Program-made: the position numbers and the translations under genes
The notes under the pieces: generated by a model
Told to the model about the DNA's origin: nothing
The model's input: only the letters and a program-made list of their open reading frames with translations
The model's database searches: none
Shown: positions 5,951 through 59,726 of the stretch, piece by piece
Numbering within the stretch: the first letter of the stretch is position 1
Layout: each line of letters begins with the position of its first letter
Source: Squalus acanthias
Lineage: Eukaryota
Length of the DNA stretch: 64,000 nt
Direction of reading: 5' to 3'
NCBI GenBank assembly: GCA_030390025.1
Contig: CM059437.1
Coordinates: forward strand, 53,010,001 to 53,074,000

Positions 5951-5965
5951 AGTAATGAAACTCCT

Positions 5966-8359: not shown

Positions 8360-8480
8360 CGTGTATTCAGTTAGGCTCAGAAACCTCGGCAGTTTGCAGG
8401 CAGAAGGTTTTAATATTTACCAGGCTCCCCTTCTCTTATCAATGTTATGAATGAGGGCGTATTACCACGTGTCCATAACT

Positions 8481-8488
8481 ATGCAAAT
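8481..8488 (-). promoter_or_regulatory. Ig promoter octamer ATTTGCAT
   Basis: Perfect octamer in light-chain orientation about 120 bp upstream of ATG 8359. Confidence 0.85.
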
Positions 8489-9194
8489 GACCGTGACGTT
8501 CCGAATGCCAATTGAACATCTTTGATCAGGCTCCACGTCACAAGCATTCCAAACTGGAGAAGAGGACATTGGAAAACAGATCCGAACTACAGTGTGATGT
8601 TGCACATCACGCGCATGACTTATTGATAAGTACAGTAACGTGTTGAGATTTATAATTGTGTAAACAGCATAAAGAAGTCATTATTTTGACAAATTCACTA
8701 AGGTATATATTTTTAATCTTTCCTTTTACGCTTGTCAGATGTACGCATTAGGAAGCAACTTTAATCGATATTTGCGATCCCTGTAAAGGCAGTGCTGTTC
8801 TAACTGTGCAATGTATAACTACAATCTTCATACACTTAGGAACGTTCCATACAAATTCAGCTACAACTCTACAAAGTATAACTTGATGATATATGATCTT
8901 TAAAATGAATTACCTTCTTATGAATAACTCAAAGATGTTAGCACACTGCGGTTTATTTGAGCCTTCTCTACGAGGTGCATTTACGCGAGAATATCTTAAA
9001 GTGAAAGCTTTAACCTAATTTATACCACATATTAATAACTGTTTTCTTAAATACAAACATCAGATAATTTAGCAGGAAAAAATATATTTTGACACTGACG
9101 TTATTTTTCTTTTAAATATTCCAACAATTGGCTTATTTTTGAGATTGTTATACTTTGTGCGATTTGAAATTACATCGAAATGAAATCATTCGTA

Positions 9195-9940
9195 TTAGGA
9201 TGGAGAAATGGGCAGATACATGGTAGATTACATTTAACGCAGCCAAGTGTGAAGTTATTCATTTATGTAGGAAGTATAAGGAGACACAATAGAAACTAAA
9301 TGGTACAAATTTAAAGCGGGTGCAGGAACAGAGAGAGCTGGGGATGTATTTATACAAGTCTTTGAAGGTGGCGGGACAAGTTAAAAGGCTATTAAAAAGA
9401 CATACGGGATTATTGGCTTCAGAAATAGAGGCATAGAGTACAAAATCAAGGGAGTATAAAACACTGGTTAGACCCCAGCTGGAATATTGTGGCCAATTCT
9501 GGGCACCACACTTTAGGAAAAATGTCAAGGCCTTAGAGTAGGTGCAGTGGAGGCTTAATAGAATGGCGCCAGGAATGAAAGACTTCAATTACGTGGAGTG
9601 ACTTGAGAAACCGGTGTTGTTCGCCTTAGAGCAGAGAAGGTTAAGCGGGATTTGTAGAAGTGTTCAAAATCATGAAGGGTTTTTATACAGTAATTAAGGA
9701 GAAACTGTTTCCAGTGGCAGAAGGGTCGGTAACCAGAGGACTCAAATTTAAAGTAATTGGCAAAGGAACTAGAGGTGACATGAGAAAGAAAAATCACGTA
9801 GCAAGCTGTTATAATCTGGAATGCACTGCCTGAAAGGGTGGTGGAAGCAGATTCAATAGTAACTTTCAAGATGGAATTGGATAAAAACTTGAAGTGGGAA
9901 TATGTGCAGGGTTATGGCCTCCTTCTTTGCTGTATCATTC
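9195..9940 (+). mobile_element. CR1 LINE 3' fragment (degenerate)
   Basis: Remnants of [13 protein letters not shown] and WNALPERVVEA. Confidence 0.85.
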
Positions 9941-11239
9941 TGTATCCGTCTAAAAGCACAGGTTTCTTTACATAACGGCTTCATTCAACTCATTCGAGTC
10001 CTCTGGTTACAAAATTTGTCACACAGGTATCTTTGCCTTTATTGGTTGATTCACACATAAGGTGGAAGGTTCCATGCCAATCAACCGGCTGAAAGCAAAA
10101 AAAAGCATTATTCAGTTCACACTGCCGTTTCTTCTTTTTAGCACCTGTTCACATCTTTACAGTTTATTTAAATATTCATATCACAAATATATCTGAATCT
10201 GCAGAGAATTGCACATTGAAAATGCAGATCTGAGGTATAAGTTTGTTGCAGCAGGATTAAAAAACAATGATAATAATGTACACATCCTGGGAATATTTCC
10301 CAGATTTAGACCCTATGGTATTTTGCTTGTACGTCATTTGTTGTACCAGAAATGTAACCTCACACAGACCCGCTTTATATAAAAAGTATCAGCAGCTACA
10401 ACTATGTCCACCGACCATTAATAAAGCAGTACCTCGCATGGGTATTCGCCATTCCAAAATTTATGTGAGGCATGAGAGGTTCATCGGTCTTTCTTTATCA
10501 ACTGTCAATTATCCGATGAACACCTGAAACTACAGTTACCATTGCCGTTCGGTTCACAATTGGATGAGGATGAATTAGAAATTCGCTTTTACCTTTAATT
10601 TATCACAAATTGGGTAACTAATCAATATGGGTAGTACGTTTCAGGATTTCCTTTCAGCCAATTTTACACAGAAAGAATTCAATATCTAAAGCAAAGTGTA
10701 GCCATACAAGTTTAAAAAAAGAGAGGGATGGTAATCGATATGGTAATATCTAGTCTTTAAGATTGCATTCCCCAAACATCACAGACAACAAACAATTCTT
10801 TCGCATATATCTGCAATCAATACAAACCTCACACACATTTTGTTGGGAAATCCCGGTCCAGGGTGCCTAAAAGCGGTTGTCTGATCTTTCCCTTCCATCT
10901 GTTAACTTGGATTTAGATAACACAGAAACAGATACCGATAATCAAATGCTTCAACCGAAAGTTGTGATGGAAAACTTTCACCTGGCACAAAAGGTTGAAA
11001 TGCAGGAAGACAGGTAGAAGTCATTTTGCTTAAGTCAAGCAGAATTGCCCACTCATGTATTATAACATGAAGAAATGTTGTGCTGATTAAATCAAGTGAG
11101 ACTAATCCTCACTGTTACACTGTATGTTCGCTTTTTATCAAATAAAACAGTATATGAAATCGTTTATGCTCTCATCTTTTTTCTTCGTTCTCTGGATATG
11201 GCCATCGCTGGCAAGGCTAGCATTTATAGCCAACCAACA

Positions 11240-13550
11240 ACAACAACAACTTGCAATTATATAGCACCTTTAAAGTCGTAAAACGTCAAAAGACGCTTCA
11301 CAAGAGCTTTATCAAGATTTGACACCTAGCCACATAAAGAGAAATTAGGACAACCGACCAAAACCTTGGTCAAAGAGGTAGGTTTTAAAGGAGGAGAGAG
11401 TGGTATGGAGGGGGAGAAGTTTCGGGAGGGAATTCCAGTGCTTGGGGCCCAGGCAGCAAAAGGTACGGCCGCCAATAGTAGAGCGATTAAAATCTAGAGG
11501 AGGAGCAAGAGGCCAGCATTTAATGTAGGGAATTCCAGAGCTTAGAGCCTAGGGATCTGTGGGGTATGGCTGGCAGTGGTGGGGCGATGGAAATCCTGGA
11601 TGCGCAAGAGGCCAGAATTGGGGAATGCAAAGATCTCGGATGATTGTAGGGCTGTAGGAGATTACAGATATTGGGAGGGGCGAGGCCATGGAGGGATTTG
11701 GAAACAAGAATCAGAAATTTAAAATAGAGGCGTTGCCACACCGGGAGCAAATGTAAGTCAGCAAGCACAAAGGTAATGCGTGAATGGGACTTTGTGCAAG
11801 TTAGGATATGAGCAGCAGAGTTTCGGAGGAGCTCAAGTATATGGATGGTGGAAGAAGGGAGGCCAACCAGAAGAGCATTGGAATAGTCAAGTAGAGTGGT
11901 AACAAAGGCAAGGATTACAGTTTAGCAGCAGAAGAACTAAGGTGAGGTGGAGCCAGGCAATGTTACGGAGGTGGAAGTAGGCGGTTTTGGTGATGGAGTG
12001 GATATGTGGTCATCTCACGGTCAACTGATACACCAAGGATGCGAATGATCTGGTTTAGCCTCAGGCAGTTGCCAGGGAGAGTGCTGGAGTCGGTGGCTAG
12101 GGAATGGAGTTTGTGGCGGGGATCAAAGACAATCTTTTTTGAGTCTTCCCAATTTTTAGTTGGAGGAAATTTCTGTTCCTCCACTACTTGATGTCGGACA
12201 AGCAGTGTGATAATTTAGAGACAGTGGAGGGGTCGAGGGAGCTGGTGGTGAGGTAGAGCTGGCTGTCATCAATGTACATGTGGAAACTGACATTGGCCCA
12301 TATTTTCCGATGCCTACGGGTGTGTACGAGCTGTGTACACACCCTTATAATCCTCCTGACAGATTGCACGCCTGCCCTGGAGAAGGGGCCCTGCGGGTGG
12401 AGTGTTCGGCTTTCTGCAGAACCTCCGCCCGCTGAAATCCCTTAAAAAACTTACGCCTGGTAAAAGTTTTTACCAGCAAAAGCGTTTAAAAAGTTAAAAA
12501 AAAATTCACGCATTTATAATGTAAAAATACTTTTTAAAAAGGTAAGTTTCTTTTTAGCCCGGTAAAAAATTGAATTTTTTTTTCAAAAAAATAAATTTTT
12601 GTTGAAAATATTTAATTTCATGTAATTTTAACTCATTTTAAAAACATAATTCTTTATTTAATTTATTTAATGTTGTAGTGTCTTTTTTCAGTGATCCCCA
12701 TTCATACGTTTAACAGGTCATACCATTGACTCGCCTGGCCCACGTGAACCCAGGGACGCTTGCGAACTGCCTGCGCCCCTGGGATCCCTTGGCCTTGGTG
12801 CGTGCGCACCACGAGAGGCACAGGAGTGGAAGAGTCCCGACCTCGGGAGCCCTCAGGTAAGGGCCTAGATTTTTTCCCGATAGGAGGCATCCGCACTCAG
12901 GATGCTTCCTATCGGAAATTACGGGCCAATTTTCGTATGATGTTGCCAAGGGGCAACATGTGGATGAAAAATGGTAGGGAACCAAGCATAGACGTTTGGG
13001 GAACTCCAGAGGTAACGGTGCAGGACCAGGAAAAGAAGCCATTGCAGGTGATTCTCTGGCTACGAATTGATAGATAAGAATGGAACCAGGCGAGGGCAGC
13101 TCGACGATGGAGGAGAGGCATTGGAGGAGGATGGTGTGGTCAATCATGACAAAAACTGCAGAAAGATCGAGAACGATGAGGAGGGATAGGTTAACATGAT
13201 CACAATCATATAGGCAGTAATTTATGACTTTCATAAGGTTCTGTTTCAGTACGGTGGCGGTGCGGATCCCTGATTGGAGGGATTCAAACATACATAATCG
13301 GGAAAGATGGGCACAGATTTGCGAGGTAAAAAGAGAGATTGGAGATGGGATGGGGTGGTAGTTTGGAAGGACAGAGGGATCAAGGGTGGGGGGGGGTTTC
13401 AGGTGAGGGGAGTTGACGGCAGATTTGAAGGGGGGAGCACAGTAGCTGAGGAGAGGAAACCTTTAATAATATTAAACAAATATTGGGGCCAGAAAGGGAA
13501 GTTTGATAGGAATAGAGACCAGGGAGCAGGAGGTGAGTCTCATGAAATAT
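11240..13550 (-). mobile_element. L2-type LINE fragment, interrupted by a MITE; continues at about 16240-17200 beyond the CR1
   Basis: Remnants LADLHLLPV, HMYIDDSQLYL and LDLSAVF..IDH. Confidence 0.8.
12295..12927. mobile_element. PIF/Harbinger-type MITE
   Basis: TIRs GGCCCATATTTTCCGAT / GGCCCGTAATTTCCGAT, flanks ATT/AAT, AT-rich core. It splits the L2 RT. Confidence 0.8.
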
Positions 13551-13557
13551 GATAGGG

Positions 13558-16238
13558 CATAGAATTCAAAGGTTACAACACAGAAGGAGGCCATTCGGCC
13601 CGTCGAGCCCATGCCAGCTGTCTACAAGAGCACTTTAATAGTCCCACTTCCCCGCCCTTTCCTCGTACCACTGCAAACTTTTTTCCTTCAGTTATTTATG
13701 CAAGTCCCTTTTGAAAGCCACGGTTCAATCTGCCTCCACCACCCTCTCAGGCAATGCATTCCAGATCATAACCATTCGCTGTGTAAAAAGGTTTTTCCTC
13801 ATGTCGCTTTTGGTTCTTCTGCCAATCACCTTAAATCTGTGTCCTCTGGTTCTTGACCCTTTCGACAATGGGAACAGATTCTCTCTATCTACTCTGTCTA
13901 AACCACTCATGATTTTGAACGAAACTCCTCTCAACCTTCTCTGCTCGAGGAAGAACAACCCCAGCTTCTCCAGTCTCTCCACATAACTGAAGCCCCACAT
14001 CCCTGCAACCATTCTTGTGCATCTTTTCTGCATCCTCTCCAAAGCTTTCACATCCTTCCTAAAGTGCGTTGCCCAGAATTGGACACAATACCCCAGTTGA
14101 GGCCGAGCCAGTGTTTTAGAAATGTTCAACATAAACCTTGCTTTTGTACTCTGTGACTCTATTTATGAAGCCGAGGGTCCTGTATGATTTTTAATTGCTT
14201 TCTGAAACTGCATTGCCACCTTCAAAGATTTGTGCACATATACCCGCAGGTCTCTCTGTTCATGCAGCCCCTTTAGAATTGTATCCTTCAGTTTATATTG
14301 CCTCTCCTCATTCTTCCTAACAGAGTGCATCACTTTGCACTTTTCTGCGTTAAATTTAATCTGGCACGTGTCCGCGCATTCCACCAACCTGTCTATGTCC
14401 TCTTGAAGTCTATCACTATGCTCCTCACTGTTCACTATACTTCCAAGCTTTGTGTCATCTGCAAATTTTGAAATTCTGCCCTGTACGCCCAATTCCAGGT
14501 CATTAATATATGTCAAGAAAAGCGGTGGTACTAGTACCGACCCCTAGGGAACACCACTGCCTTACTTCCTCCAGTCCGATAAACAACCGTTCACCACTAC
14601 TCTCTGTTTCCTGTCACTTGGACAATTTTGTATCCATGCTGCCACTGTCCCTTTTATTCCATGGGCTTCAACTTTGCTGCAAACCTATTATGTGGCACTT
14701 TATCAAACGCCTTTTGGAAGCTCATGTACACCACATCAACCGCATTGCCCTCATCAACCCTCTGTTACCGCATCAAAAATCTCAATCAATTTAGTTAAAC
14801 ACGATTTGCCTTTAACAAATCTGTGCTGACTTTCCTTACTTAATCCATCCTTGTCCAAGTGACTGTTAATTTTGTCCCTGATTATCGTTTCTAAAAACTT
14901 CCCCACTACGAGTTTAAACTGACTGTAGTTGCTGGGTTTATCCTTGCACCCTTTTTTGAACAAAGGTGTAACATTTGCAATTCTCCAGTCCTCTGGCACT
15001 ACTCCCGTATCTAAGGAGGATTGGAAGATTATCGCCAGTACCTCCACAATTTCCATTTTTACTTCCCTCAGCATCCTTGGATGCATCCCATCCGGTCCTG
15101 GTGACTTATCTGCTTTAAGTACAGCCGGTATTTCCAGTGCCTCCTCTTTATCAATATTTGTCCTATCCAGGATCTCAACTACCTCCTCTTTCACTATGAC
15201 TTTGGCAGCATCCTATTCCTTGGTAAAGACTGATGCAAAGTGTTCATTTATTACCTCAGCCATGCCCTCTGCCTCCATGTGTAGGACTCCATTTGGTCCC
15301 TAATTGGCCCCACCCTCCTCTTACTACCCGTTTATTATTTATATGCCTATAGAAGACTTTTGGATTCCCTTTTATGTTAGCTGCCAATCTATTCGCAGAC
15401 TCTCTCTTTGCCCCTGGTATTTCCTTTTTCACTTCCCCTCTGAACTTTCTATATTCAACCTGCTTCTCACTTGTATTCTCAACCTGACATCTGTCATACC
15501 GCCCCTTTTCTGCTTCATCATACTCTATCTCTTTCGTCATCCAGGGAGCTCTGCCTTTGGTTGCTCTACCTTACCCCTTGTAGGAATGTACCTCGATGAT
15601 ACCCAAACTATCTCCTCTTTAAAGGCAGCCCTTTGTTCGATTACAGATTTACCTGCTAATTTTTGATTCCGCTTTACCCGAGCCAGATCCATTCTCAACC
15701 CTCTGAAATTTGCCGTCCTCCAATTAAGTAGTTTTACACTAGATTGCTACCTGTCCTTTCCCATAGCTAATCTAAACGGTATGATACTATGATCACTGCT
15801 CCCTAAATGTTCCCCTGCTGACACTTGCTCCACTTGACCCACCTCATGCCCCAGAACCAGTTCCAGCAATGCCTCCTTCCACATTGGGTCAGAAATGCAC
15901 TGACCAAGAAAGTGCTCCTGAACACACTTCAGAAATTAGTCCCCCTCTCTGCCCTTTACACTATTACTATCCCAGTCCATATTAGGATAGTTGAAGTCTC
16001 CCATTATCTCAACTCTATCGTTGTTACACCTCTCTGATATTTCCCTGCAACTTTGCTCTTGTATATCCTTCCCACTAGTTGGTGGCCTATAGAATACACC
16101 TAGTAGTGTAATGGCACCTCTATTGTTTCTTAACTCTAACCAAATAGATTATGTCCTTGACCCCTCCAGGATATCCGCTCTCTCCAGCACTGTAATATCC
16201 TCCTTAATCAATACTGCCACCCCACATCCTTTCTTTCC
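13558..16238 (-). mobile_element. CR1 LINE, about 2.7 kb of disrupted ORF2 (APE endonuclease plus RT)
   Basis: KSPGPDGMHPR, DWRIANVTPLFKKG, KFADDTKL, RPQLGYCVQFW. Confidence 0.92.
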
Positions 16239-16554
16239 ATAAGGGAGGATAGTAGAGCAACGAGTAAAATATGCGAGTTCAGGGGTAAGGCAGGGGGGAA
16301 CCTAAGAGGAAGTTTGGCCCGGTGGGCTAGGAAGTGGCAGAGGCATCTGAATGGATGGTCTCAATCTTAGTGACTAAGAAGTCCATCAGCTCCTCGCTCT
16401 TGTCATTGAAGATGAAGGTGGAGGAGGCAGAGGAGTGTGGTTTAAGAAGGCACTTGGAGTGTAGAATGGGGCAATTTTTGTTGCTGCTCATAAGGAGACA
16501 GCGAAGAGTGCCTCGATGGGCTCTTCAGAGGGTGCCAAGAGAGGCACAAAGAAT

Positions 16555-16985
16555 GGGGCAACACGGTGGCATAGTGGTTAGCACTGGTGCCTCACAGCGC
16601 CAGAGACCCGGGTTCGAATCTGACCTCGGGTGACTGTCTGTGTGGAGTTTGCACATTCTCCCCGTGTCTGCGTGGGTTTCCTCCGGGTGCTCTGGTTTCC
16701 TCCCACAGTCCAAAAATGTGCGGGTTAGGTTGATTTGGCTATGATAAATTGACCCTTAGTGTTAGGGGGGGGATTAAATATGTAGGGTTATGGGGATAGG
16801 ATGGGATATGTTAGGGGGAATTAAATACGTGGGGTTACGGGGGTAGGGTGGGATATGTGTACTGTGGGGATTAAAGCAGGGACAGGGTACTGGATTTGGA
16901 TGATCAGCCATGATCGTATTGAATGGTGGAGCAGGCTTGACGGGCCGAATGGCCTACTCCTGCTCCTAGATTCTATGTTTCTATG
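16555..16985 (+). mobile_element. HE1/V-SINE-like tRNA-derived SINE, present only in copy 1
   Basis: A box TGGCATAGTGG, B box GGTTCGAATC, central TGTGTGGAGTTTGCACATTCTCCCCGTG domain and a CR1-derived 3' tail. Empty site at about 62738. Confidence 0.85.
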
Positions 16986-17224
16986 TACCTGTCGACTTAC
17001 CTAAAAGGCTGTCCAGGCTGGGATGTCGGCAGGAGAGTAGCAAGTTCGTGGAGTCCTGAAGGGTTGGGTAGGTATTTGGGAGGACAGATTATCCGAGAAG
17101 GGAGGAATTAAGGAAGGCACGATGACAGGAGAAAGGGGCCTAAGAGGGGTAAACAGAAAAGAAGAAAAAGGTGGAGTAAAAAGGGGGAATATAAGTGATG
17201 GGCTCGGGACCGGAGCAGCAGCCC

Positions 17225-18606
17225 GTCCACTAAAGGCAGGACAAATCCAATCCAGCTAATTACCAGCGCAGGAGTCCACTCTCAATCATCAGCAAAGTAG
17301 TGGAAGGTGTCGTTGACTGTGCTACAAAGCGACACTTACTCACCAAAGACCTGCTCACCGATGCACTGTATGGTTCCGCCAGGACCACTCTTTGCCGAAC
17401 TTGGTACAAACATGGGCAACAGAGCTCACTTTCAGAGGTGAGGTTCGAGTGACTGGCCTTACATCAAGGCAGCATTTGACCAAGTGTGGCATCAAGGAGT
17501 CCTAGTAAAATTGAAGTCAATGGGAATCAGGGGGAATGTTCTCCACTGGCTGGAGTCATTTCTAGCATAAAGGAAGATGGTTGTGGTTGTTGAAGGCCAA
17601 CAGCCCCAAGAAATCGCTGCAGGAGTTCCTCAGGGCAATGCCCTAGGCCCAACCATCTTCAGCTGCTGCATCAATTACCTTCCTTCCGTCATAACATCAG
17701 CCGAGGCGATGTTCGCGGATGATTGCACAGTGTTCAGTTCCATTCACAACTCCTCAGATAACGAAGCAGTTCATGCCCGCATTCAACAAGACCTGGACGG
17801 CATTCAGGCTTGGGCTGATAAGTGGCAAGTAATATTCGTGCCACACAACTGCCAGGCAATGACTATCTCCAGCAAGAGAACGTCTATCCACCGCCCCTTG
17901 ACATTCAACGGGATTACCATCACCGAATCCCCCACCGTCAATAACCTTGGATTCACCGTTGACCAGAAACTTAACTGGACCAGTCAAATAAATACTGTAG
18001 CTGAAAGAGAAGGTCAGAGGCTGGGAATTCTGCGACGAGTGTCTCACATCCTGCCTCAGCAAAGCCTTTCCACCATCTACAAGGCACAAGTCATGAGTGT
18101 GATGGAATACTCTCCACTTGCCTGGATGAGTGCAGCGCCAACAACACTCAAGCAGCTCGACACCATCCAGGACAAAGCAGCCCACTTGATTGGCACCCAA
18201 TTCACCACCTTAAACATTCACTCCCTCCACCACTGCCACACCGTGTCTACTGTGTGTACCATCTACAAGATGCACTGCAGCAACTTGCCAAGGCTTCTTT
18301 GCCAGCACCTCCCAAACCCACGACATCTACCACCTAGAAGGACAAGGGCAGAAGACGCATAGGAGCATCACCTCCTCCAAGTTACACACCATCCAGACGT
18401 GGAAGTATATCGCCGTTCCTTCATCGTCGCTGGGTCAAAATTCGGGAACTCCCTCCCTAACAGCACTGTGGGAGTACCTTGACCACATGGACTGCAGAGG
18501 TTCATGAATGCGGCTCACCACCACCTTTTCAAGGGCAAGTAGCGATGGGGGCAATAAATGCTGGCCTTGCCAGCGACGCCCACATCGCAGGAACGAATAA
18601 AAAAAT
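17225..18606 (+). mobile_element. Non-LTR retrotransposon RT 3' part (CR1/L2-group family distinct from the main CR1)
   Basis: ORF 17577-18362 with GVPQGNALGP and MFADDCTVF; the 3' end carries AATAAA and an A-rich tail. Confidence 0.85.
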
Positions 18607-21775: not shown

Positions 21776-23189
21776 GAGAATTCTATAAATCTGAAATGAC
21801 ATCATAAAATGCTGGAAATACTCAGCAGATCAGACAGCATCTTGACCTGAGACGTGAACTCTGTTTCTCTCTCCACGGATGTTGCAAGACCTACTGAGTA
21901 TTTGCAGCATTTTCTGTCTTCTCAGTGGTATCCGTTTACCACACGAGGCCTTGCAAGCATCCAGCAGCATGGCCTACACACTTAAAAAACTTTTAACATC
22001 TATTGCAGCAAGCCACTACTTCAGTAAAATCAAAAAACCCCAGTCCAAAAGCATAAATGCAAACATACCTGAAAGATGGGTGTGTCCTTTTAAGAGGTGC
22101 TGACAGCACCACTGTCAGTCTGCTTGCACGCTGCATTTACCTGGTTTGTTTGGAACCCAGCGATGAACTCAGCGCTAGGATCGAAGTTCACTGTGGTGAC
22201 ATTAAGTCGGCATTGCACGCCGACTGATGTCACCACACCGTCATTTTTCTTTGCAGGGTGATAACTCTTAACGGCAGTGCTACCGGGCCCACGAAAATGC
22301 AGGATGCCTTGGGGCTCGCCATCTTCTGGTGGAAGAGTGGCTGCCGCTGCTTTTTCAACATTACGCCACGCTGACAGGTGTCGAAAACCACCCGAATTTC
22401 AATGCTGCAGGTTCTAAACCAAGAAGTATAAATTAGAATATTTAATTCATTGTAAAATAATGTACAGAATGCAAAATAAAAAAGGGAAAGAAAGATGGGA
22501 TTTAGAGAGAGAGAGATAAAAGAGACAGAAAGAAAAAGTATTGGCCTGGAATTTGCAGTGGGTAGTAACAGTGCATTCGCTGTTATTACCCCTTTGAAAC
22601 TGAACGCAAATTCAGGATTTAGTGCCTGCACATCCTAAAGTCGAAATCCTGAAGTTGCGGTCAGTTATTCACTGCTCCGACACTGGCTGTGCTGTGCCCT
22701 CCCGCCCCCACCCCACCCCCCGCCACAACCCTATAGCCAACAATAAGGGAAATCAGTGAAACTGATGAAAACTTGGGCTTTTCAATGCTAATATTAATTC
22801 CATTAAAGTGGGAAACAGGGAAATAGCAGCGATTTTGAACAAATATTTTGTACCGGTCTTCATGGTAGAAGACACTAAAATCATCCCAATAATAATTGAT
22901 AATCAAGGGGCTATTGGGAGGGAGGAACTTCAAACAATGACTATCACTAGAGAAAAAGTACTAGACAAACTAATGGGACCACAGACTGACAAGTCCACTG
23001 ACCTGATGGCCTACATCCTAGGGTCTTAAAAGAAGTGGCTGCAGAGATAGTGGATGCGTTGGTTGCAATCTACTAAAAATCCCTGGATTCTGGAGAGGTC
23101 ATGATGCGGAGATGCCGGTGTTGGACTGGGGTGGACAAAATTGAGAGGTCGCACAACACCAGGTTATAGTCCAACAGTTTTATTTGAAA

Positions 23190-23227
23190 TCACAAGCTTT
23201 CGGAACTATCGCTCCTTCCTCAGGTGA
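23190..23227 (-). ncRNA. Minimal type I hammerhead ribozyme motif
   Basis: Exact mirror of 24803-24840. Confidence 0.8.
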
Positions 23228-24802
23228 AGTAAATTGGATACAGAATCGTCAGAGCATATATAGATGGAAAAAAAAGCATGTGTACTTTACAATTGCAGAC
23301 CAATAAATTAAATCATCCTGACTATCTGCCGAGGTGTGATAAAGTTAATTAAGTCAGCCAGGAAGGTACCACATCAAAAGACATAGCAAGATACAACTGA
23401 GACAATGAGGTGAAGTCGCAGGGGTTCTAACGTGTCAAAAGCTGCCGTCTGTATGTAAAACGAAAAGCTTTAAAAAAAAAAAAAAAAAAATTTACTTTTT
23501 TACTGGGAAAATTTTTACTTTTTTACTGGGAATCACATCTGTGAACAAGCTAACGACGACTCGAGTCCGGATCACGTCATGTATCGTGACATAAACCCAA
23601 GATCCCGATTGAGACCGTCTTCATGAGTGCAGAACTTGGCTATCAGTTTCTGCTCGATGATTTTGCGTTGTCGTGTGTTTCTAAGGTTGCCTTGGAGAAC
23701 GCTTACCCGCAGATCCGAGGCTGAATGTCCTTGACTGCTGAAGTGTTCCCCGACTGGGAGGTAACAATCCTGCCTGGTGATTGTTGCGCGGTGCTCGTTC
23801 ATACGTTGTCTCAGTGTCTGCATGGTCTCGCCGATGTACCATGCCGCGGTGCATTCTTTCCTGCAACGTATGAGGTAGACAACGTTGGCCGAGTCACATG
23901 AGTATGTACCATGTACCTGGTGGGTAGTGTCCTCACGTGTGATGGTGGTATCTGTGTTGATGATCTGGCATGTCTTGCAGAGTTTGCCATGGCAGGGTTG
24001 TGTGGTGTCGTGGTGACCACGACACCACACAACCCTGCCATGGCAAACTCTGCAAGACATGCCAGATCATCAACACAGATACCACCATCACACGTGAGGA
24101 CACTACCCACCAGGTACATGGTACATACTCATGTGACTCGGCCAACGTTGTCTACCTCATACGTTGCAGGAAAGAATGCACCGCGGCATGGTACATCGGC
24201 GAGACCATGCAGACACTGAGACAACGTATGAACGAGCACCGCGCAACAATCGCCAGGCAGGATTGTTACCTCCCAGTCGGGGAACACTTCAGCAGTCAAG
24301 GACATTCAGCCTCGGATCTGCGGGTAAGCGTTCTCCAAGGCAACCTTAGAAACACACGACAACGCAAAATCATCGAGCAGAAACTGATAGCCAAGTTCTG
24401 CACTCATGAAGACGGTCTCAATCGGGATCTTGGGTTTATGTCACGATACATGACGTGATCCGGACTCGAGTCGTCGTTAGCTTGTTCACAGATGTGATTC
24501 CCAGTAAAAAAGTAAAAATTTTCCCAGTAAAAAAGTAAATTTTTTTTTTTTTTTTTTTAAAGCTTTTCGTTTTACATACAGACGGCAGCTTTTGACACGT
24601 TAGAACCCCTGCGACTTCACCTCATTGTCTCAGTTGTATCTTGCTATGTCTTTTGATGTGGTACCTTCCTGGCTGACTTAATTAACTTTATCACACCTCG
24701 GCAGATAGTCAGGATGATTTAATTTATTGGTCTGCAATTGTAAAGTACACATGCTTTTTTTTCCATCTATATATGCTCTGACGATTCTGTATCCAATTTA
24801 CT

Positions 24803-24840
24803 TCACCTGAGGAAGGAGCGATAGTTCCGAAAGCTTGTGA
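24803..24840 (+). ncRNA. Minimal type I hammerhead ribozyme motif
   Basis: UCAC-CUGAGGA-A-GGAGC-GAUA-GUUCC-GAAA-GCU-U-GUGA: stem I UCAC/GUGA, CUGAnGA and GAAA boxes, 5-bp stem II, palindromic AGCU in place of stem III. Confidence 0.8.
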
Positions 24841-25493
24841 TTTCAAATAAAACTGTTGGACTATAACCTGGTGTTGTGCGACCTCTCAATTCTGGAGAGG
24901 TCCCAGCGGATTGGAAAACCGCAAATGTAATGCTTCTATTCAAGAAAGGAGGGAGGCAAAAAACAGGAAACTATAGGCCAGTTAGCCTAACATCTGTCAT
25001 TGGAAAAAAGCTGCAATCCATTATTAAGGAAGTAACAGCAGGACATTTAGAAAATCATAATACAATCAAGCAGAGTCAACATGGTTTATGAAAGGGAAAT
25101 CGTGTTTGACAAATTTACTAGAGTTCTTTGAGGATGTAACGAGCAGCGTGGATAAAGGGGTTCCAGTAGATGTAGTGTATTTGGATTTCCAGAAACCATT
25201 TGATAAAGTGCCACATAAAAGGTTACTGCACAAGATAAGAGCTCACGGGGTTGGGGTAATATATTAGCATGGATAGAGAATTGGCTAACTAACAGAAAAC
25301 AAAGAGTCAGGATAAATGGGTCATTTTCCGGGTGGCAAACTGTAACTAGTGGGGTGCCAGAGGGATCAGTGCTGGAGCCTCAACTATTTACAATCTATAT
25401 TAATGACTTTGAAGAAGGGACCGTGTGTACTGTCAACAAATTTGCTTATGATAGAAAGACAGGTGGGAAAGCAAGTTCTGAGGAGGACACAAA

Positions 25494-26344
25494 GGGGGGA
25501 ATTTTGCCGGCGCTCAGTGGGCAAGTTTGGAGGTCGGACGGCTGGCAAAATTACAAAGATTGAAAGCGGGTCCCGAACCCACTGTCAACCCGCCTCCATA
25601 CAATCTTCCCAAGTGTCGGGTCCCCGATTTGCACAGGGACCCGCCACCTAGGGGCGAGAAGAGGATTATAGGCACTTAACTGTCTGTTAACAGGTAGTTA
25701 ACAGGCAGTTAAGAGGCTTTTTTTCAATTTTGCCAGATCGACTGCGGGCTTCCCGACGTCCAGATACCACGCCAGGGTAAGTGTGGCGTGCTGTGGGTCT
25801 ACTGTAAGGTTTGTGCATTGATGACAGAAGTGGTGTGAAGGATCCAATGGTATACTGGTGAGTTTCAGAGGTAAGAAAATGTTGGGGAAATCATTTTTAA
25901 TCTATTTAGACTTTTCTGTAGGTGATAAGGTTTGAAGTATTTGTGTAGTCCCACCTCTTTGGGAGAACTTCTCTCACCAGTGACAGATCGCTTCTGTAAA
26001 CTCACCTGCAGCTGCCATCTGTTTTATCCTAAGGAGAGAGTCTCTGGAGAGCCTGTCTGCAAGGGATCACCTTTGTACAGTGAATGGCAGTGTTTACAGC
26101 ACCTCAATGCTGTCCAACACTGAAAAATCATCTGTCAAAAAAATGAGCATGTCCCCTTTAAGAAAACCGGCAGATGACGCGTCATCAACTGACGTCATCT
26201 GACACCGGCTTTCTCTGAATTGGCCGGCAAGCCCGCCGGGCGGGCTTAACAAGGCCAATTGCGTCGGGCGTCGTTGGGGCGGGATCGGAACCCGCAAGTC
26301 AGCTGACCCACTCCCAACTCGCAATGAAAGGTAAGATCGCGCCC
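25494..26344. mobile_element. Harbinger-type MITE inside CR1
   Basis: TSD AAA/AAA; imperfect TIRs GGGGGGAATTTTGCC / GGGCGCGATCTTACC. Removing it restores the CR1 frame. Confidence 0.8.
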
Positions 26345-28469
26345 AAAGAGTCTGCAAAGGGATGTAGATTGATTAAGTGAGTGGGCAAAAATTTGGCAGA
26401 TGGAGTATAATGTGGGAAAATGTGAGGTTATCCACTTTGGTAGGAAAAATAAAAAAGCAAATTATTATTTAAATGGAGAGAGACTTCACAATGCTGCGGT
26501 ACAGAAGGATCTTGGGGTCCTCGTAGATGAAATACAAAGAGTTAGCATGCAGGTACAGCAAGTAATTAGGAAGGCAAATGGAATGTTGGCCTTTACTGCA
26601 AGGGGGATGGTATATAAAAGTTGGGAAGTCTTGCTACAACGGTACAGGGCGCTGGTGAGACCACACCTGGAGTACTGCGTGCAGATTTGGTCTCCTAATT
26701 TAAGGAGAGATATACTTGCATTGGATGCAGTTCAGGGAATGTTCACTAGGTTAATTCCTGAGATAAAGGGGTTGTCTTATGAAGAAAGGTTGAGCAGGTT
26801 GGGCCTATACTCATTGGAGTTTAGAAGAATGAGAGGTGATCTTCTTGAAACATATAAGTTTCTGAGGGGGCTTGAAAGGGTAAATGCAGGGAGGATGTTT
26901 CCCCTCGTGGGGGAATCTAGAACTAGGGGGCACACTTTCAGGATAAGGGGTCGCCCATTCAAAACTGAGATGAGGAGGAATTTCTTCTCTCAGATGGTCG
27001 TGAATCTTTGGAATTCTCCACCCCAGCGAGCTGCGGAGGCGGTGTCATTGAATATATTCAAGGCGGAGATAGACATATATTTGAGCTACAGGGGAGTCAA
27101 GGGTTATGGTGAGCGGCCGGGAAAGTAGAGTTGAGGCCAAGATCAGATCAGCCATGATATTATTGAATGGCGGGGCAGGCCCGAGGGGCCGAATGGCCTA
27201 TTCCTGCTCTTCCTTCTTATGTTCTTATATAATATCGCTGTTAAATACCCCATTAAAAGTTAGACCTTGTTGGATTAGGTTAACTGGGGTTTTAAAATCA
27301 TATTGACTTCTAAACATACATTATGGCCCATAAAAAGCTTTTCCTCCATTATATTAAAAATTACAACTTTTAAGATACTTCAAAAAAATTATATTTTTTA
27401 ATGCTTGTTGATATTTATTTCAGGTTTAACTTTTCCAATGTGAGAGCCCCAATCTTTGCTTTACACGCTGTAACATTTTTAAATAGTCAGGATAAAAGGA
27501 GCTTCTTCACTTCCTGGTTCCCTGTCTGTGAGAATTCTGCCTTGTGAGTGGCTGCTTAGAGAGCTTGTTGACGTCACAGCAGGTGGGGTTAGGAATTCCC
27601 CACTATACTGCAATGATCTCAATTGCAAGCCGAAAAACCCAAACTTCTCGCAACAGAGATTGCGTGATCTTTGTGAGCAGCTTTCTTCGGGGCCAATGCC
27701 GAATGACTTTGCTTCACCGCTGACCACAAATTATGGGACAGATTTTTTTTTAACGTGTAAGAAGTCTCCAACAATAATTAAATTCTGAAGGAATTAGATG
27801 TCACACTTGTAAAATTTAATTTTCAATGCTAGGGAGGTTGTTTCGCAGTATCACACCATTAAAAAAAACCTCATAAATGAATGCACCAGTCCTAACATTT
27901 TCTGGCGTGCTTAGTGGGAAAGTGCAGCAACTTCACGCCCTCACATGGATTTCAATGCCGAGTCTATCGGCGAGGTACAGTTGTAGCAAAGCTTGAGGAG
28001 GAGCAGGGCACATTGGACAGCAACTGCCGGATTTCCACTTTTAATTGCGTTTTTGCGGACTCCAGAAGTTGCTGGCCAGTTTACTCCATAATAGCGGTGA
28101 GCGCTGTTAGCCTCACTGTTATTCTGAACACAAAATCCGGGCCATTGCGTATAAGCTGGACTTAAAGCATAGAATGTTACAACGTCACTCGCAGTGGGGC
28201 TGGACACACTCAGGTGATTGCAAGGCACATCGAGTTTGATCACCTTGTTAATGTTAATCAGTTTGTATCTCAATACCTTATGTACTATGTTATGACTGTT
28301 CCCTTTGTACCTTAACATATTTTCTTCTTGTATTGTAGCTTCTTTTATAACTGTAATAAACATATATACGTTGGACCAAAGCTAACTCTAGTCTTGGAGT
28401 ACCAAAGACCCAATCTAATATAAGTTTCACATAAGTGGCAGGTGTAAGAGGCCAGATTTAGGATCATAG

Positions 28470-30870: not shown

Positions 30871-31318
30871 TTTCATACCTGCATCTCCCACAAAGCAACT
30901 TCAGCTTCAGTGGACCTCGGAACAATGATAACTCTTATGTAGTGTTTCATGTGCAGCTCAACATTCTCAAAATGCCATCACTTAATATTTGTCTCTCCTC
31001 CAGGGTCACCACATAAAGATCAAGAGCCCCTGATGGGAAAGGACGAAGACTCCTCAGAGGAACTAATACCTACTGAGGATGCACCGTCACGTGACACAAG
31101 TGTTGTCGGCACCAGCGCAGATACCAGTACCTTGGTTGGTCCTCACAGGCAGGTAGATTATACTGCACTTGATTACTCTTCTGGCACAAGTGAGCAAGAG
31201 CAGAGAACAGTGGAAGGGACACCTGGTGAGATTATGTGACAGACGTCGCCATCCTCTCGAAGGTCTGCTGATCAGGACAGCGATGCAGAACCCTTCAGGC
31301 CAGCACTGAAAAGGAGAA

Positions 31319-31745
31319 ATAACAACAGAAAACGCTGGAAAAACTCAGCAGGCCAGGCAGCATCCGTGGAGAGAAAAACAGAGTTAACGTTTCAGGTCGA
31401 AGACCTTTCGTCAGAACTGGAAAAAAGCAGGAAAGGGAATAGATTTAAAGCAAGTATAATGCTGGGAAAAGGAGGAGGGGATGAAAGAACAAAAGGCAAG
31501 GTCAGTGGTGGGATAGAATGCAGGAGAGATTAAGAGACATAAAGAGATGATCAAGGCAAGAGGAGGTGGTAATGTGACAGGTAGAGGCTAGATGAAGTGT
31601 GAACTGGGCTGGCAAAATGAAGGACAGCTGCAAGCTTCTGGGATGGGGAAAAAAATGCCAAACAAAAGGGTGGATGAAAAAATAAAATTAAAAAAATATA
31701 TATATGTGATAGGGGCCAAGGTTATGATCTGAAATTGTTGAACTC
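31319..31745 (-). mobile_element. Penelope-like family B 3' fragment
   Basis: 10-bp TSD AAAAGGAGAA (31309-31318 / 31746-31755). Inverted homolog of 38911-39333; contains a hammerhead motif. Confidence 0.8.
31382..31418 (-). ncRNA. Minimal type I hammerhead ribozyme motif (family B)
   Basis: AGUU-CUGACGA-A-AGGUC-UUC-GACCU-GAAA-CGU-U-AACU: perfect stems I and II, palindromic ACGU. Confidence 0.8.
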
Positions 31746-32423: not shown

Positions 32424-34092
32424 ATGAGAAGTCGCACAACACCAGGTTATACTCCAACAGTTTTATTTGAAATCACAAGCTTTCGGAGTGCTGCTCCTTC
32501 GTCAGGTGAAGTGAAGAGATGTATATAGGCACAGCATATATAGTCAGAGAACACTGCCAGATGATTACAGTTAATCTTTCTAACTGCCCTTTATCACACC
32601 TCGGCAGAGAGATAATCACGGCAATCAAAGGTGTGGATGGTGTCCAAACAGGTCAGTCAGGAAAACATTACATCGAAGACAATGAGGTGGGGTCACAAGG
32701 GGTCAAATGTGGCAGATGCTGGGGTCTGTATGGAAAACAACATTCTTTTTTTGCTGCAAATCACAGCAGGTCCGGCCGCATCTGTGTAGAGAGAACAAGC
32801 CAACGACGACTCGAGTCTGGGTGACTCTATGTCAGGTGGGGTTACATGTAGCGTGACATGAACCCAGGATCCCGGTTGAGGCAGTCCTCATGTGTGCAGA
32901 ACTTGGCTATCAGTTTCTGCTCGATGATTTTGCGTTGTCGTGTGTCTCGAAGGCCGCCTTGTAGAACGCTTACCCGAAGATCGGCGGCTGAATGTCCTTG
33001 ACTGCTGAAGTGTTCCCCGACTGGGAGGGAATACTCCTGCCTGGCGATTGTTGCGCGGTGTCTGTTCATACGTTGTTGCAGTGTCTGCATGGTCTCGCCG
33101 ATGTACCATGCTCCGGGGCATCCTTTCCTGCAATGTATGAGGGAGACAACGTTGGCCGAGTCACATGAGTTTGTTCCATGTACCTGGTGGGTGGTGTCCT
33201 CACATGTGATGATGGTATCTGTGTTGAGGATCTGGCATGTCTTGCAGAGGTTGCCGTGGCAGGGTTGTGTGGTGTCGTGGTCGCTGTTCTCCTGAAAGAT
33301 GGGTAATTTGCTGTGAACGATGGTCTGTTTGAGGTTAGGCGGCTGTTTGAAGGCGAGTAGTGGAGGCGTGGGGATGGCCTTAGCGAGGTGTTCGTCATCA
33401 TCGATGACATGCTGAAGGCTGCGAAGAACATAGCGTAGTTTCTCCGCTCCACTGAAGTACTGGAAGACGTAGGGTACTCTGTTGGTTGTGTCCCGTGCAA
33501 CAATCGCCAGGCAGGAGTGTTCCCTCCCAGTTGGGGAACACTTCAGCAGTCAAGGACATTCAGCCTCCGATCTTCGGGTAAGCGTTCTCCAAGGCGGCCT
33601 TCGATAACATCAACAAGTTACATCCCACCATCAAACTCACCATGGACTACTCCTCAGAATTGGTTTCATTCTTGGACACACGAATCTGCATCAAAGATGG
33701 ACACTTCAGCACTTCACTCTACCGCAAGCCCACGGACAACGTCACGATGCTCCAATTCTCCAGCTTCCAGCCTAACCACGTTAAAGAAGCCATCCCCTAT
33801 GGACAACCCTGCGAATACACAGGATCTGCTCAGACGAGGAGGAACGTGATGGACACCTACAGACGCTGAAAGACGTCCTCGTAAGAATGGGATATGAAGC
33901 TCGACTCGTCAATCGACAGTTCCGACGGGCCACGGCAAAAAATCACATAGACCTCCTCAGAAGACGAACACGGGACACAACCAACAGAGTACCCTACGTC
34001 GTCCAGTACTTCCCCAGAGCGGAGAAACTACGCCATGTTCTTCGCAGCCTTCAACATGTCATCGATGACGATGAACACCTCGCTAAGGCCAC
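32424..34092. mobile_element. Rearranged Penelope-like element (family A)
   Basis: - strand terminal repeat and GIY-YIG region at 32424-33496, then a + strand GIY-YIG piece (33497-33604) and RT C-terminus (33605-34092; VSFLDTRI..LYRKPTD). Confidence 0.88.
32473..32509 (-). ncRNA. Minimal hammerhead ribozyme motif (family A)
   Basis: UCAC-CUGACGA-A-GGAG-CAGCA-CUCC-GAAA-GCU-U-GUGA. Confidence 0.78.
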
Positions 34093-34375
34093 GCGTAGGG
34101 GAGTCACGCCCTCAAAAGTTGTATTTGCATAGGCCACGCCCCCGGTTTATTTCAACACTTCAGAAGCATTCGAAACTGAAAGTAGCTGGCAAACTGCCTG
34201 GTAAGTTGTTTCTTTATAGTTTTTTGAATCTTTTGCAAACTTTTAGAAACTTTTAAAGACTTTTACATGGATTTGAAGAATCTTAAATAGTTTGAAAGTG
34301 ATTTGAAGCAATTTAAAGAGTTTTAAAAGCACTGAAAACATTTTTTCATTCATTTTAATTAATCAGCAAAGTGAA

Positions 34376-36024: not shown

Positions 36025-36611
36025 CTTTCAATTGGCAGCAGAGGACTCCAGTCATGGGGAAGGGGAAAGCGCAGGAGACAGTAGGTTGTCACCTTTTGCA
36101 CAATCCACCTCCTTTGACTCTCAGGCACAGATGCGAGGGGGCAAATCGTCAATTCTTTAATGTTTCGTTTTATTTAAATGTTAAATGTTGTCGTTGCTTT
36201 TTTTATTGAAATATATATTTGTGACTGAAAGTGTATGTAACCTTTTCGTTTAAAAAGTACAGCCTCCAGTCACTTTGAAAAAAATTCAACTTTTTTATTT
36301 GCAGAAATATTTAAAATTACAACTGTTTGAAAATTAGAAAATAGCTAGTTTCCATCTTGAATGTCTTTATTGCACTAAGAAACCAAAAAAGTCACTTTAA
36401 ACTGTTTACAAATTTTATTCAAAAAAATTATATTTGCGAATGTTTGAAAAGTAGAAAATAGCTAGTTAACATTTAAAAGTTAAAAACTAAGAACATCAAA
36501 ACTGAACCTCAAAAGTCTTTGATGCTGCAATAAAAGTTCACTGTCTCACTTTAAATTGTGTCTGTTCCTTTCTTTGCCTTGCTGGGGGAGGGGTGGTACA
36601 AGGCAACACTA

Positions 36612-39600
36612 TCAATATTCAGGAAAGATAGGCAAAAAGGAAAGGGAGGTGGGGTAGCATTGCTGGTAAAAGAGGGGATTAACACAATTGTAAGGAAGGA
36701 TATCAGCTCTCTTGATGTGGATTCTGTATGGGTAGAACTGAGAAATACCAAGGAGCAGAAAACGTTAGTGGAAGTGGTTTATAGACCTCCAAACAGTAAT
36801 GCAGAGGTTGGGGTTGGCATTAATAGGGAAATTAGAGAAGCGTGCAATAAGGGCACAGCAGTCATCATGCGTGACCTTAATCTGCATATAGATTGGGCTA
36901 ACCAAATTAGTAACAATATTGTGGAAGAGGAATTGCTGGAGTGTTTACGGGATGGTTTCCTGGACCAATATGTCGAGGAACCAACCAGAGATCAAGCCAT
37001 CTTAGATTGGGTATTATGTAATGAGAAAGGATTAATTAGCAATCTTGTTATACGAGGCCCCTTGGGTCGGAGCGATCATAATATGATAGAATTCTTCATT
37101 AAGATGGAGAATGAAGTAGTTGACTCAGAGACGAGGGTCCTGAATTTAAATAAAGGAAACTACAATTGTATGAGGCGCGAGTTGGGTAGGATTGATTGGG
37201 GAATGTCACTCAAAGGGTTGACGGTGGATAGGCAATGGCAAACATTCAAAGACCGCAATGGATGAACTACAGAATTTGTTCATCCCAGTTTGGCATAAGA
37301 ATAAAACAAAGAAGGAGACTCAACCGTGGCTAACAAAGGAAATTAGGGCTAGCATAAGATCCAAAGAGAGGACAAATAAAATAGCCAGAAAAAGCAGTAA
37401 ACCTGAGAATTCGGAGCAGTTTAGGATTCAATAAAGGAAGACAAAGGGATTAATTAAGAAGGTGAAAATAGAATATGAGAGGAAGCTGCAGGGAACATAA
37501 AAACTGACTGTAAAAATTTTTATAGATATGTGAAGAGAAAAAGATTGATGAAGTCAAGCGTAGGTCCCTTGCAGTCAGAATCAGGGGAACTTATAATGGG
37601 GAACAAAGAAATGGCTGACCAATTAAATACATATTTTGGTTCTGTCTTCACAAAGGAGGACACAAATAACCTCCCAGAGATGTCAGGGAACATAGGGTCT
37701 GATGAAAGGGAGGAACTGAAAGAAATCAGTATTTGTAGGGAAATGGTGTTCAGGAAATTGACGGGATTGAAGGCCGATAAATCGCCAGGGCCTGATAATC
37801 TACATCCTAGGGTACTTAAGGAAGTGGCCCTAGAAATAGTAGATGCATTGCTGATCATCGTCCAACATTCGATGGAATCTGGAACAATACCCACGGATTG
37901 GAGGGTTGCTAATGTTACCCCTCGATTCAAAAACGGTGGTAGAGAGAAAATGGGGAATTACATCGGTAGTGGGGAAAATGCTAGAGTCCATTATAAAAGA
38001 TGTAATAGCAGAGCACTTGGAATACACTGACAGGATCGGACAAAGTCAACATGGATTTACAAAAGGTAAATCGTGCTTGACTAATCTACTGGAATTTTTT
38101 GAGGATGTAACTGGTAAAATAGATAAGGGAGAACCAGTGGATGTGGTGTATTTGGACTTTCAAAAGGCTTTCGATAAGGTCCCGCATAAGAGAATAGCGT
38201 GTAAAGTTATGGCACATGGGATTGGGGGCAAAGTATTGACTTGGATAGAGAACTGGTTAGCAGACAGAAAGCAAAGAGTTGGAATAAACGGGTCTTTGTC
38301 CGAGTGGCAGGCAGTGACTAGTGGGGTACTGCAGGGATCGGTCCTTGGACCCCAGCTATTCACAATATATATTAATAATCTAGAAAAGAGAACTAGATGT
38401 AATATCTCCAAGTTTGAAGACGACACAAAGCTGGGTGGGCGTGTGTGTTGTGAGGAGGATGCCGAGAAACTCCAGGATGATTTGGACAGGTTGGCTGATT
38501 GGGCAGCAGCATGCCAGATGCAATATAACGTGGATAAATGCGAGGTTATCCACTTTGGTGTCAAAAACAGGAAGGCAGATTATTATCTGAATGGCAATAG
38601 ATTGGGAGAAGGGGAAGTGCAACGAGACCTGGGTGTCCTTGTGTACCAGTCGCTGAAGGTAAGCATGCAGGTGCAGCAGGCGGTTAAGAAGGTAAATGGT
38701 ATGTTGGCCTTCGTAGCGAGAGGGTTTGAGTACAGGAACAAGGATGTCTTGCTGCAGTTGTACAGGACCTTGGTGAGACCACATCTTGAGTATTGTGTGC
38801 AGTTTTGGTCGCCATATCTGAGGAAGGAGGTTCTTGCCATGGAAGGAGTTCAGCGAAGATTCACCAGGCTGATACCTGGGATGGCAGGAATGACGTATGA
38901 GGCGAGATTATCATAACCTCAGCTCCAATCACATTTATATTTTATTTTATCCACCCTTTTATTTGTCCCCCCCCCCCACCTTTTTTTTCCTCCTAGAAGC
39001 TGGCAGCTGTCCTTCATTCTGCCAGTGGATTTCACACTTCATTCAGCCTTAATCTGTCACATTAACACCACCTCTAGCCTTGCATATCTCTTAATGTCTC
39101 TTAATGTCTCTTCATCTCTCCTTTTGTTCCTTTATCCCCTCCCCCTTTTCCCAGCTTTACCCTGGCCTTAAATCTATTTGATTTCCGGCTCTTCCCAGTT
39201 TTGATGAAAGGTCATCGACATGAAACGTTAACTCTCTTTCTCTCTCCACGGATGCTGCCTGGCCTGCTGAGTTTTTCCAGCGTTTTCTGTTGTTATTTCG
39301 GATTTCCAGCATCCGCAGTATTTTGCTATCGTATTGGGTCGATTGGGCTTATACTCGCTGGAGTTTAGAAGAATGGGAGGGGATCTCATTGAAACTTATA
39401 AAATTCTGACAGGACTGGACAGACTAGATGCAGGAAGGATGTTCCCGATGGTCGGGGAGTCCAGAACCAGGGGTCACAGTCTAAGGATAAGGGGTAAGCC
39501 ATTTAGGACAGAAATGAAGAGGAATTTCTTCACCCAGAGAGTGGTGAACCTGTGGAATTCTCTACCACAGAAGGCAGTAGAGGCCAATTCATTAAATATA

Positions 39601-39779: not shown

Positions 39780-40927
39780 TCACCTCGTGAAGGTGTTAGC
39801 TACTAGCAGTTCCTGAGCAGCCTTACTTCCGGCAGCACTTGGATCCTCCCCATCAGGCCTGGCCACAGGCACATTGGCATCGTCCATGACCTCCATTTCA
39901 GTAGGGAGCTCCTCTGCAGGGTTAAGGGTCAGTCCTTCCCGCAGGGCAAAGTTATGCAAAGCACAACAGGCCACCACAATCCTTGTCACTTTCAGAGGAG
40001 AATACTGCAAGGTCCCCCCTGACCTGTCCAGGCAGGGGAAGCATGATTTCAGAGCCCCAATTGTCCTCTCCACCACTTGCCGTGTGGACACGTGTGCCTG
40101 GTTGTATCTCTCTGAGCCTCATTATTGGTCTTGCGGTAATGAGTCATCAGCCATGGTCTTAGCGGGTAGCCCTTGTCGCCAAATATCCATGCGGATCCTG
40201 GAAGCAATGTGCTGAGGGTGCCATATAAGTCCGAGTTACGGAGGACGAAGGAGTCATGAGCACTTCCCTGGTGATCTGCATTCACGGTTTGAATCCTGAC
40301 GTGCGCATCACAGACCATCATGACATTCAATGAATGAAACCCCTTCCTGTTGATGTATGTCACAGGTGCATCCAGTGATGCCTTCAATGCAACATGGGTT
40401 CCATTGACGGCCCCAATCACTTTGGGGAATCCAGCAATGCTATAAAATGCAAGGGCCATCCCCTTTTGATGGTGAGTGGACAAGTCAAAGTCTATGAACT
40501 CTGAAGCCCTACGGAAAATGGCATCTGTGACCTGGTGAATGCAGGCCAAGGCAGCACTCTGGGAGATGTTGGAAATGTCACCGGTGCTTGCCTGAAATGA
40601 CACACTTGCAAAGAAGTTCAATGCTGTGGTTACCTTCATGATCACTGACAAGGCAGTGCGGATCTTCGAGCATGTTTGAAGGTCCTCCTTTAACATGTCA
40701 CATAGTCGGCTGATTGCCTCTTTACTGAAGCGCAGCCTCCTCACACACAACTCCTCCGACAGCATCTCAAATGACAGCCTCTCCCTGTACACTCTCTGGG
40801 GTGGGTAGTAGTTCCTCCTGATCAGGAGATGGTGATGGTTCCTCAGTCTTCTTTGTTGTTCTCTGGTGTTTCCAGTTCTCTGATGCACAATCGCACCGAG
40901 GATCAGGGCAACATCGTCAAAGGGCAT
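39780..40927 (-). pseudogene. Harbinger DDE transposase (HARBI1-like), inactivated
   Basis: FPKVIGAVNGTHV (first catalytic D replaced by N), YINRKGFHSLNV, GSAHDS, GDKGYP; frameshift near 40100; then RQVVERTIGALKSCFPCLD. Confidence 0.92.
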
Positions 40928-51270: not shown

Positions 51271-51289
51271 CAGGAGTAAAGAAACTCAT

Positions 51290-59720: not shown

Positions 59721-59726
59721 ATAGGG

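Follow-up and report, generated by a model that had tools for sequence, protein, structure and literature searches.

Minimal hammerhead motifs in the pLTRs of two families of Penelope-like elements of Squalus acanthias

Results

The 64-kb stretch of Squalus acanthias DNA analyzed here (the window) contains eight hammerhead motifs that, judged by their sequence, represent the minimal form of type I hammerheads, lie in the pseudo-LTRs (pLTRs) of two families (A and B) of Penelope-like elements (PLEs), and thus belong to a class known since 2014. We consider it very probable that these motifs mark the pLTR ends of two PLE families, likely of the Neptune clade, that their predicted cleavage requires pairs of motifs, and that they are probably silent in the six truncated copies in the window. 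A preliminary description of the window listed eight motif strings, and a direct check of the sequence located all of them at the coordinates and on the strands given below; however, they represent six insertions and not eight independent events, because two of the insertions are palindromic and bear a motif in each arm, on opposite strands (A1/A2 and A4/A5).

Positions within the motifs are numbered according to the standard hammerhead scheme. The core CUGANGA ... GAAA ... NUH is intact in six of the eight motifs, and A5 and B3 have one core change each. The descriptor applied to the window (hammerhead core plus a stem II of at least 4 bp) matched six true motifs (A1-A4, B1 and B2) and one unrelated U3-A8 sequence at position 5057; the core and stem II alone were found at a mean of 0.43 per shuffle in 100 dinucleotide shuffles of the window. 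Complete motifs, which also have the palindrome and a stem I of at least 4 bp, number five in the window versus a mean of 0.0 in 100 such shuffles. The sequence at 5057 (+) is a recurrent repeat word, found also in L076, L077, L079 and L084, that passes the loose U3-A8 core and stem II filter; it was rejected as a hammerhead since it is devoid of U16.1, H17 and stem I.

Most of the structural details proposed earlier are borne out. The extra A downstream of CUGAnGA is present in all eight motifs, the predicted cleavage triplets (CUU in family A, GUU in family B) follow from the hammerhead numbering, and the core of A5 is indeed changed from GAAA to GAUA, so that this motif fails the core descriptor. 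For B3, the reported C3>U change is correct, but stem II of this motif (GACAU) has a second lesion, a G·A mismatch, that had been missed. The claim of three stem II forms needs correction because A3 has a fourth, 4-bp form (GGAG/CUCC). The claim of stem covariation holds with a qualification: pairing is kept, but each stem II change within family A alters one side of the pair (A-U/G·U/G-C), and a single stem I pair is the sole case in the window in which both partners changed within a family. The remaining covariation is the contrast between A and B. In an alignment of the seven distinct rows, which omits A1 (identical to A2) and in which MAFFT misplaces one stem II pair in four rows, 94.5% of the paired cells hold, compared to 67.8% in shuffled and 21-43% in slid alignments. 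The covariance-model check that had been proposed gave a negative result, as no hammerhead family was reported by an Rfam search of the window at E<=10.

One family A insertion (23101-24888) is a palindromic, head-to-head copy of a 5'-truncated PLE, with arms at 23136-24014 and 24016-24894 that differ by two mismatches over 879 nt. Motif A2 (24803-24840, + strand), with the predicted cut between 24836 and 24837, and the identical A1 (23190-23227, - strand) lie in opposite arms. The left arm has a tail of ~37 nt (23101-23135), and the insertion is flanked by a target-site duplication (TSD) of 14 bp (left copy 23087-23100, + strand; right copy 24889-24902). The A2 arm starts with the final 147 codons of an endonuclease of the GIY-YIG type. 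This part of the PLE reading frame, its 3' end, comprises a CX4CxxC linker and the GIY-YIG domain, spans 24016-24458 (+) and is mirrored at 23572-24014 (-). The domain was detected with Pfam PF01541 at E 2.5e-4 and 21.7 bits, slightly below the cut-off of 22.6. This insertion sits inside a LINE, and a LINE reverse transcriptase (RT) fragment follows at 25219.

A short palindromic family A insertion (56385-56600) contains A5 (56471-56508, - strand, A14 changed) and A4 (56511-56548, + strand), in arms with four mismatches over 92 nt and a tail on the left arm. Its TSD is 13 bp long (left copy 56372-56384, + strand; right copy 56601-56613), and the empty target site, with a single copy of the 13-mer, is found at 11084-11096 (+) in the paralogous copy of a duplication of ~14 kb and ~95% identity. 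This direct duplication joins ~3510-18223 and ~49250-64000, which are ~95% identical and 45-46 kb apart; its two copies differ by insertions, A4/A5 among them. The third family A insertion (32425-34144, - strand) includes motif A3 (32473-32509, -), the end of the open reading frame (32845-33497, -) and an inverted piece of this frame (33546-34144, +).

The family B copies are 3' ends. B1 (31382-31418) lies in a PLE 3' end at 31317-31742 (- strand) that is 90% identical over 437 nt to the 3' end of a family B element elsewhere in the genome (L085). B2 (3407-3443) belongs to a copy at 3410-3507 (+), 92% identical to L085, which is truncated at the core; the earlier observation that B2 has no stem I is explained by this 5' truncation at 3410. 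The decayed B3 (39197-39233) lies in a copy at 38910-39299 (+) with 80% identity. A ninth copy, absent from the earlier list, is an older palindromic family B fragment without a core (21787-21917, no strand assigned). The pair at 10.1-11.1 is A-U or G·U, rarely G-C, in family B, and G10.1-C11.1 in family A. In L065 and L066 (G000:C1:6986000-7059900), a local duplication contains family B 3' ends in head-to-tail order, separated by a ~35-nt minisatellite; these tandem motifs were rejected as an intact element because the 3' ends are interleaved with the minisatellite.

The claim that the motifs belong to two Penelope families is well founded: each family is tied to PLE frames encoding RT and GIY-YIG domains and fits the published minimal hammerhead consensus, as given in the part of PMC4209133 that we consulted. 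The near-full-length family A element L031, to which the family A arm in the window is 95% identical, has the organization motif - 877-codon frame - motif, with the motifs 3,136 nt apart, that is, in both pLTRs. Its frame matches RVT_1 (E 2e-9) and diverges from the protein in the window near its end; the start of GIY-YIG is visible, but this domain was not reported by Pfam. In family A, ~125 nt separate the motif from the ATG downstream. In the family B element L085, the region encoding RT and GIY-YIG, 34% identical to family A, ends ~350 nt upstream of the motif, which is found in the 3' pLTR only; upstream matches also occur in L044/L086, L045, L049 and L050. Proteins of both families have CX4CxxC before GIY-YIG. 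A CX2-5CxxC linker in this position is a mark of Neptune/Nematis in the consulted part of PMC8557442, and the families are therefore likely to belong to the Neptune clade, an assignment by a linker motif that Nematis also has.

We then counted pattern matches in the whole genome (3.7 Gb), with the reversed pattern as the control. The family-free core pattern has 142,949 matches versus 818 for the reversed control, i.e., a density of ~39 per Mb; the exact family patterns retrieved 57,394 copies of A and 26,438 copies of B, with zero matches in the reversed control. In a sample of 35 stretches of 10 kb, chosen at round coordinates, there were 14 matches (40 per Mb), in agreement with the genome total; the window has six. 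The genome-wide check of covariation that had been suggested supports it at stem I pair 2.3-1.3 of family A. Among 64,283 copies, this pair is C-G in 40,158 (by subtraction), U-A in 21,691, U·G in 2,030 and C·A in 404, so that C-G or U-A account for 96%. The C·A state is far below the 13,942 copies expected under independence, and the U·G intermediate is five times commoner than C·A. These counts, which refer to copies and not to events, show a linked double change; the swap may represent one or a few events.

A sample of variants (62 variants in 120 contexts) was enriched for loci selected by pattern, and the core was part of the filter. In this sample, 166 of 170 pair cells hold in the 17 variants seen at least twice, N7 takes all four bases, loop II has seven forms, H17 is U or C and never G (62/62), and the unpaired A between A9 and 10.1 is always present (62/62). 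The palindrome at 15.2-16.2 is GC or CG in 59 of the 62 variants and of the G·U type in three, with no stem III. Taken together, the copies in the window and in the genome indicate that helices I and II are kept by compensatory change, with few independent events.

The distribution of 5' ends does not support a pile-up of truncations at the hammerhead cut. Of 43,180 copies, 187 have their 5' end at the predicted cut, compared with 121 and 134 at the control offsets +2 and -2, a raw excess of 1.4-1.5-fold that becomes ~2.4-fold after a rough correction for pattern degeneracy. When 30 of the cut-starting copies were inspected by eye, microhomology with the antisense arm accounted for at least eight, and two were small insertions, so that the small excess is partly microhomology. 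Nearest-neighbor energies, from a model that omits the tertiary contacts of the core, are -18.5 kcal/mol for the double hammerhead of A2 versus 2 x -10.5 for the monomers and -23.4 for another dimer; for B1, the double hammerhead has -9.7 versus 2 x -9.1 for the monomers. The modeled energies disfavor the double hammerhead over two monomers and are consistent with slow or assisted cutting.

The 3' ends of family A are bimodal: of 62 distinct ends, 32 fall at unit positions 120-137, 28 at 158-172 and two elsewhere, with the ATG at 161. Palindromic insertions combine one long and one short end in 77 of 78 cases (20/20, 19/19 and 38/39 in three sets; one of 21 rows, a distant second copy without a TSD, was dropped from the first set, and L145 is absent from the set of 19 pairs). 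TSDs in head-to-head pairs are mostly 12-14 bp long. Independent insertions with identical TSD sequences were observed twice, at 23087-23100 of the window and L031 (within the LINE RT region) and at L005 and L033 (inside another repeat), which suggests insertion hot spots. In L145 (G000:C1:13373070-13373920), both palindrome arms enter identical foreign sequence 24 nt past the cut site; this locus is a larger inverted structure or contains a second element.

In some palindromic insertions, a single TSD encloses arms with hammerheads of different subfamilies (L135-L140 and L144, G000:C1:8052260-8053100 and others; L196). Ten insertions picked by eye have one TSD, one long and one short arm, and motifs that differ between the arms; in seven of these (L135-L140, L144), the arms differ by 2-4 linked changes, each matching variants that recur elsewhere. 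L196 is a further case, from a set of 60 loci chosen for discordant stem I. Mixed-arm insertions are a minority of palindromic insertions: three were counted by eye among about 27 pairs in one listing, and no loop swap between arms was found among 12 unpicked pairs with both motifs. The ten hand-picked pairs suggested RNA exchange or an RT jump exactly at the hammerhead cut. This possibility was rejected on the 60 discordant loci because differences between the arms occur upstream as well as downstream of the cut, the latter at positions such as +3, +8, +10 and +16 (L161, L177, L194, L206, L210, L214), and because several U·G copies have identical arms and thus represent a real subfamily.

Discussion

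The results are compatible with the following scenario. Two copies of the motif, either in tandem in one source transcript or on two separate RNAs, would pair through their AGCU or ACGU palindromes and both stems I to form a double hammerhead. This is the dimer model invoked in the preliminary description, and it corresponds to the published one in the consulted part of PMC4209133; stem III of the monomer, with a loop of 2 nt, cannot be closed. By analogy with the element of the anole, the double hammerhead would cut after CUU or GUU, probably slowly and with the help of the protein of the element. Reverse transcription would start at either of two sites, which lie ~50 and ~90 nt beyond the cut. 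Because both starts would be 3' of the cut, the motif would be copied into almost every insertion, however truncated, and a huge copy number would therefore arise without selection on individual copies. The copied template would be uncut at the predicted site or re-joined, possibly as circular RNA, because so few copies begin at the predicted cut. For motifs of this kind, weak cleavage has been reported for dimers and none for monomers (PMC4209133; review PMC6765202), and the anole motif has been reported to cleave only with the protein present, its core mutants still being inserted (PMC11167929), according to the portions of these sources consulted.

The copies in the window are probably inactive. 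None has a same-strand tandem partner, and the two closest pairs cannot dimerize in cis because they are on opposite strands. In both palindromes, transcription passes through the antisense arm first, and all 38 nt of the motif pair with this arm, so that read-through RNA would bury the whole motif in a duplex.

The absence of a 5'-end pile-up at the cut also bears on another reading, compatible with the one preferred here, in which the motif owes its conservation chiefly to a structural role (as a site of RNA-RNA pairing, or as a protein-binding or folding signal for the RT-endonuclease) and cleavage is rare or incidental. The anole element, whose core mutants insert and for which unprocessed RNA is the main substrate in the consulted part of PMC11167929, and the single insertions with arms from different subfamilies also agree with it. 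However, a pairing signal by itself would not need the whole catalytic core, a free N7 and a non-G H17, all of which are conserved in both families and across animals, and cleavage followed by circularization or re-joining would likewise leave intact motifs in the cDNA. We regard this reading as rather unlikely.

The mixed arms point to two templates, or to two different pLTRs on one RNA, because a fold-back copy of one cDNA gives identical arms. Gene conversion or template switching within an arm is another possible source, and the evidence leaves two templates per insertion evenly poised. A stronger version appears improbable, namely that each palindromic insertion is made from two RNA templates by an RT-endonuclease dimer, which primes at a pair of nicks spaced by 12-14 bp (with a long and a short start), the hammerhead palindrome and the stems I formed in trans serving as the dimerization signal that joins the templates. 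Mixed arms within one TSD would argue against simple fold-back self-priming, as proposed in the consulted part of PMC3846280, and for two priming events, in agreement with the extension of both strands in vitro for the anole element (PMC11167929, consulted part). If the reading of two templates joined by hammerhead pairing were true, tens of thousands of young pairs would make the mechanism of PLE integration testable from sequence alone.

It is very unlikely that the motifs are non-autonomous retrozymes or SINE-like tandem units and not PLE ends. Short copies (about 100-220 nt) do hold little beyond the motif, and retrozymes derive from PLE pLTRs and are present in a chondrichthyan (bioRxiv 10.64898/2026.07.22.740005). 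Conversely, head-to-tail tandems of short units are absent from the window, where copies are dispersed or head-to-head, and the copies have variable 5' ends and continue into the PLE 3' UTR and open reading frame; by sequence, colinearity with L031 and L085 largely refutes this explanation. Equally doubtful is the co-option of individual copies to cut host transcripts, which the genome-wide density of ~39 motifs per Mb might favor. Sequence of the pLTR end is also abundant in contigs of public runs guessed to be RNA (n=19; assembled contigs only, from which molecule ends are unreadable). Against co-option, A5 and B3 are decaying, the window copies have no same-strand tandem partners of their own family nearby, and the antisense arms described above would sequester the motif. 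Chance matches, which the negative Rfam search might favor, are refuted by the zero complete motifs in 100 shuffles and by the excess of 142,949 over 818 matches, and their probability is negligible.

The motifs resemble the minimal hammerheads of metazoan PLE pLTRs (Cervera & De la Pena 2014, PMC4209133, which uses the same position numbering) in several respects, as far as the consulted part of that source goes: (i) the CUGANGAH core with the extra base, GAAA and NUH; (ii) a 4-nt palindrome that replaces helix III and a helix I of 3-5 bp; (iii) U-rich 5' and AU-rich 3' flanks (consensus in Figure S3); (iv) the pLTR location and opposite-strand pairs. Family A has the AGCU-U end of the painted-turtle motif and the UCAC/GUGA stem I of the lamprey motif, and family B has ACGU-U, as in many rows. 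The A-U or G·U pair of family B departs from the G10.1-C11.1 consensus, which is above 80% and not absolute, with exceptions in the published alignment, one coelacanth row among them. The 142,949 pattern matches found here compare with ~4,000 copies in coelacanth and ~9,000 in Xenopus, obtained with another descriptor and older assemblies. The searched part of the supplement has no shark rows. Our literature search, in sources consulted in part, found no report of minimal hammerheads in sharks or of two-template PLE insertion.

A hammerhead at the pLTR end is also found in the Poseidon element PAc of Anolis carolinensis (Frangieh et al. 2024, PMC11167929, consulted in part), in which two RT start sites a tail-length apart match the two family A 3' ends, both strands are nicked and extended, and, as here, nothing points to RNA ends at the cut. 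Unlike PAc, the elements described here have the Neptune/Nematis cysteine linker, and the family A motif precedes the ATG instead of lying over it, with the long end at the ATG. With the Neptune-clade PLEs, in the consulted parts of PMC8557442 and PMC3846280, they have in common the CX2-5CxxC before GIY-YIG, TSDs, partial tandems, an inverted 5'-truncated copy and a tail of 30-40 bp at one end. In contrast, TSDs are 12-14 bp long here and 8-10 bp in rotifers, and those parts make no mention of arms from two subfamilies.

As a ribozyme find, this work adds two families to the known class. Its value is as a resource: the genome offers about 140,000 motifs, together with numerous insertions that are young and datable, which allow compensatory states to be counted and the formation of inverted PLE insertions to be studied, and which show that inserted cDNA almost never starts at the cut site. 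The window also contains a fragment of a DDE_Tnp_4 (Harbinger-type) transposase at 40049-40936 on the - strand (Pfam E 4e-19), and LINE endonuclease and RT fragments at 36555-38916, 25219-27128 and 17571-18362.
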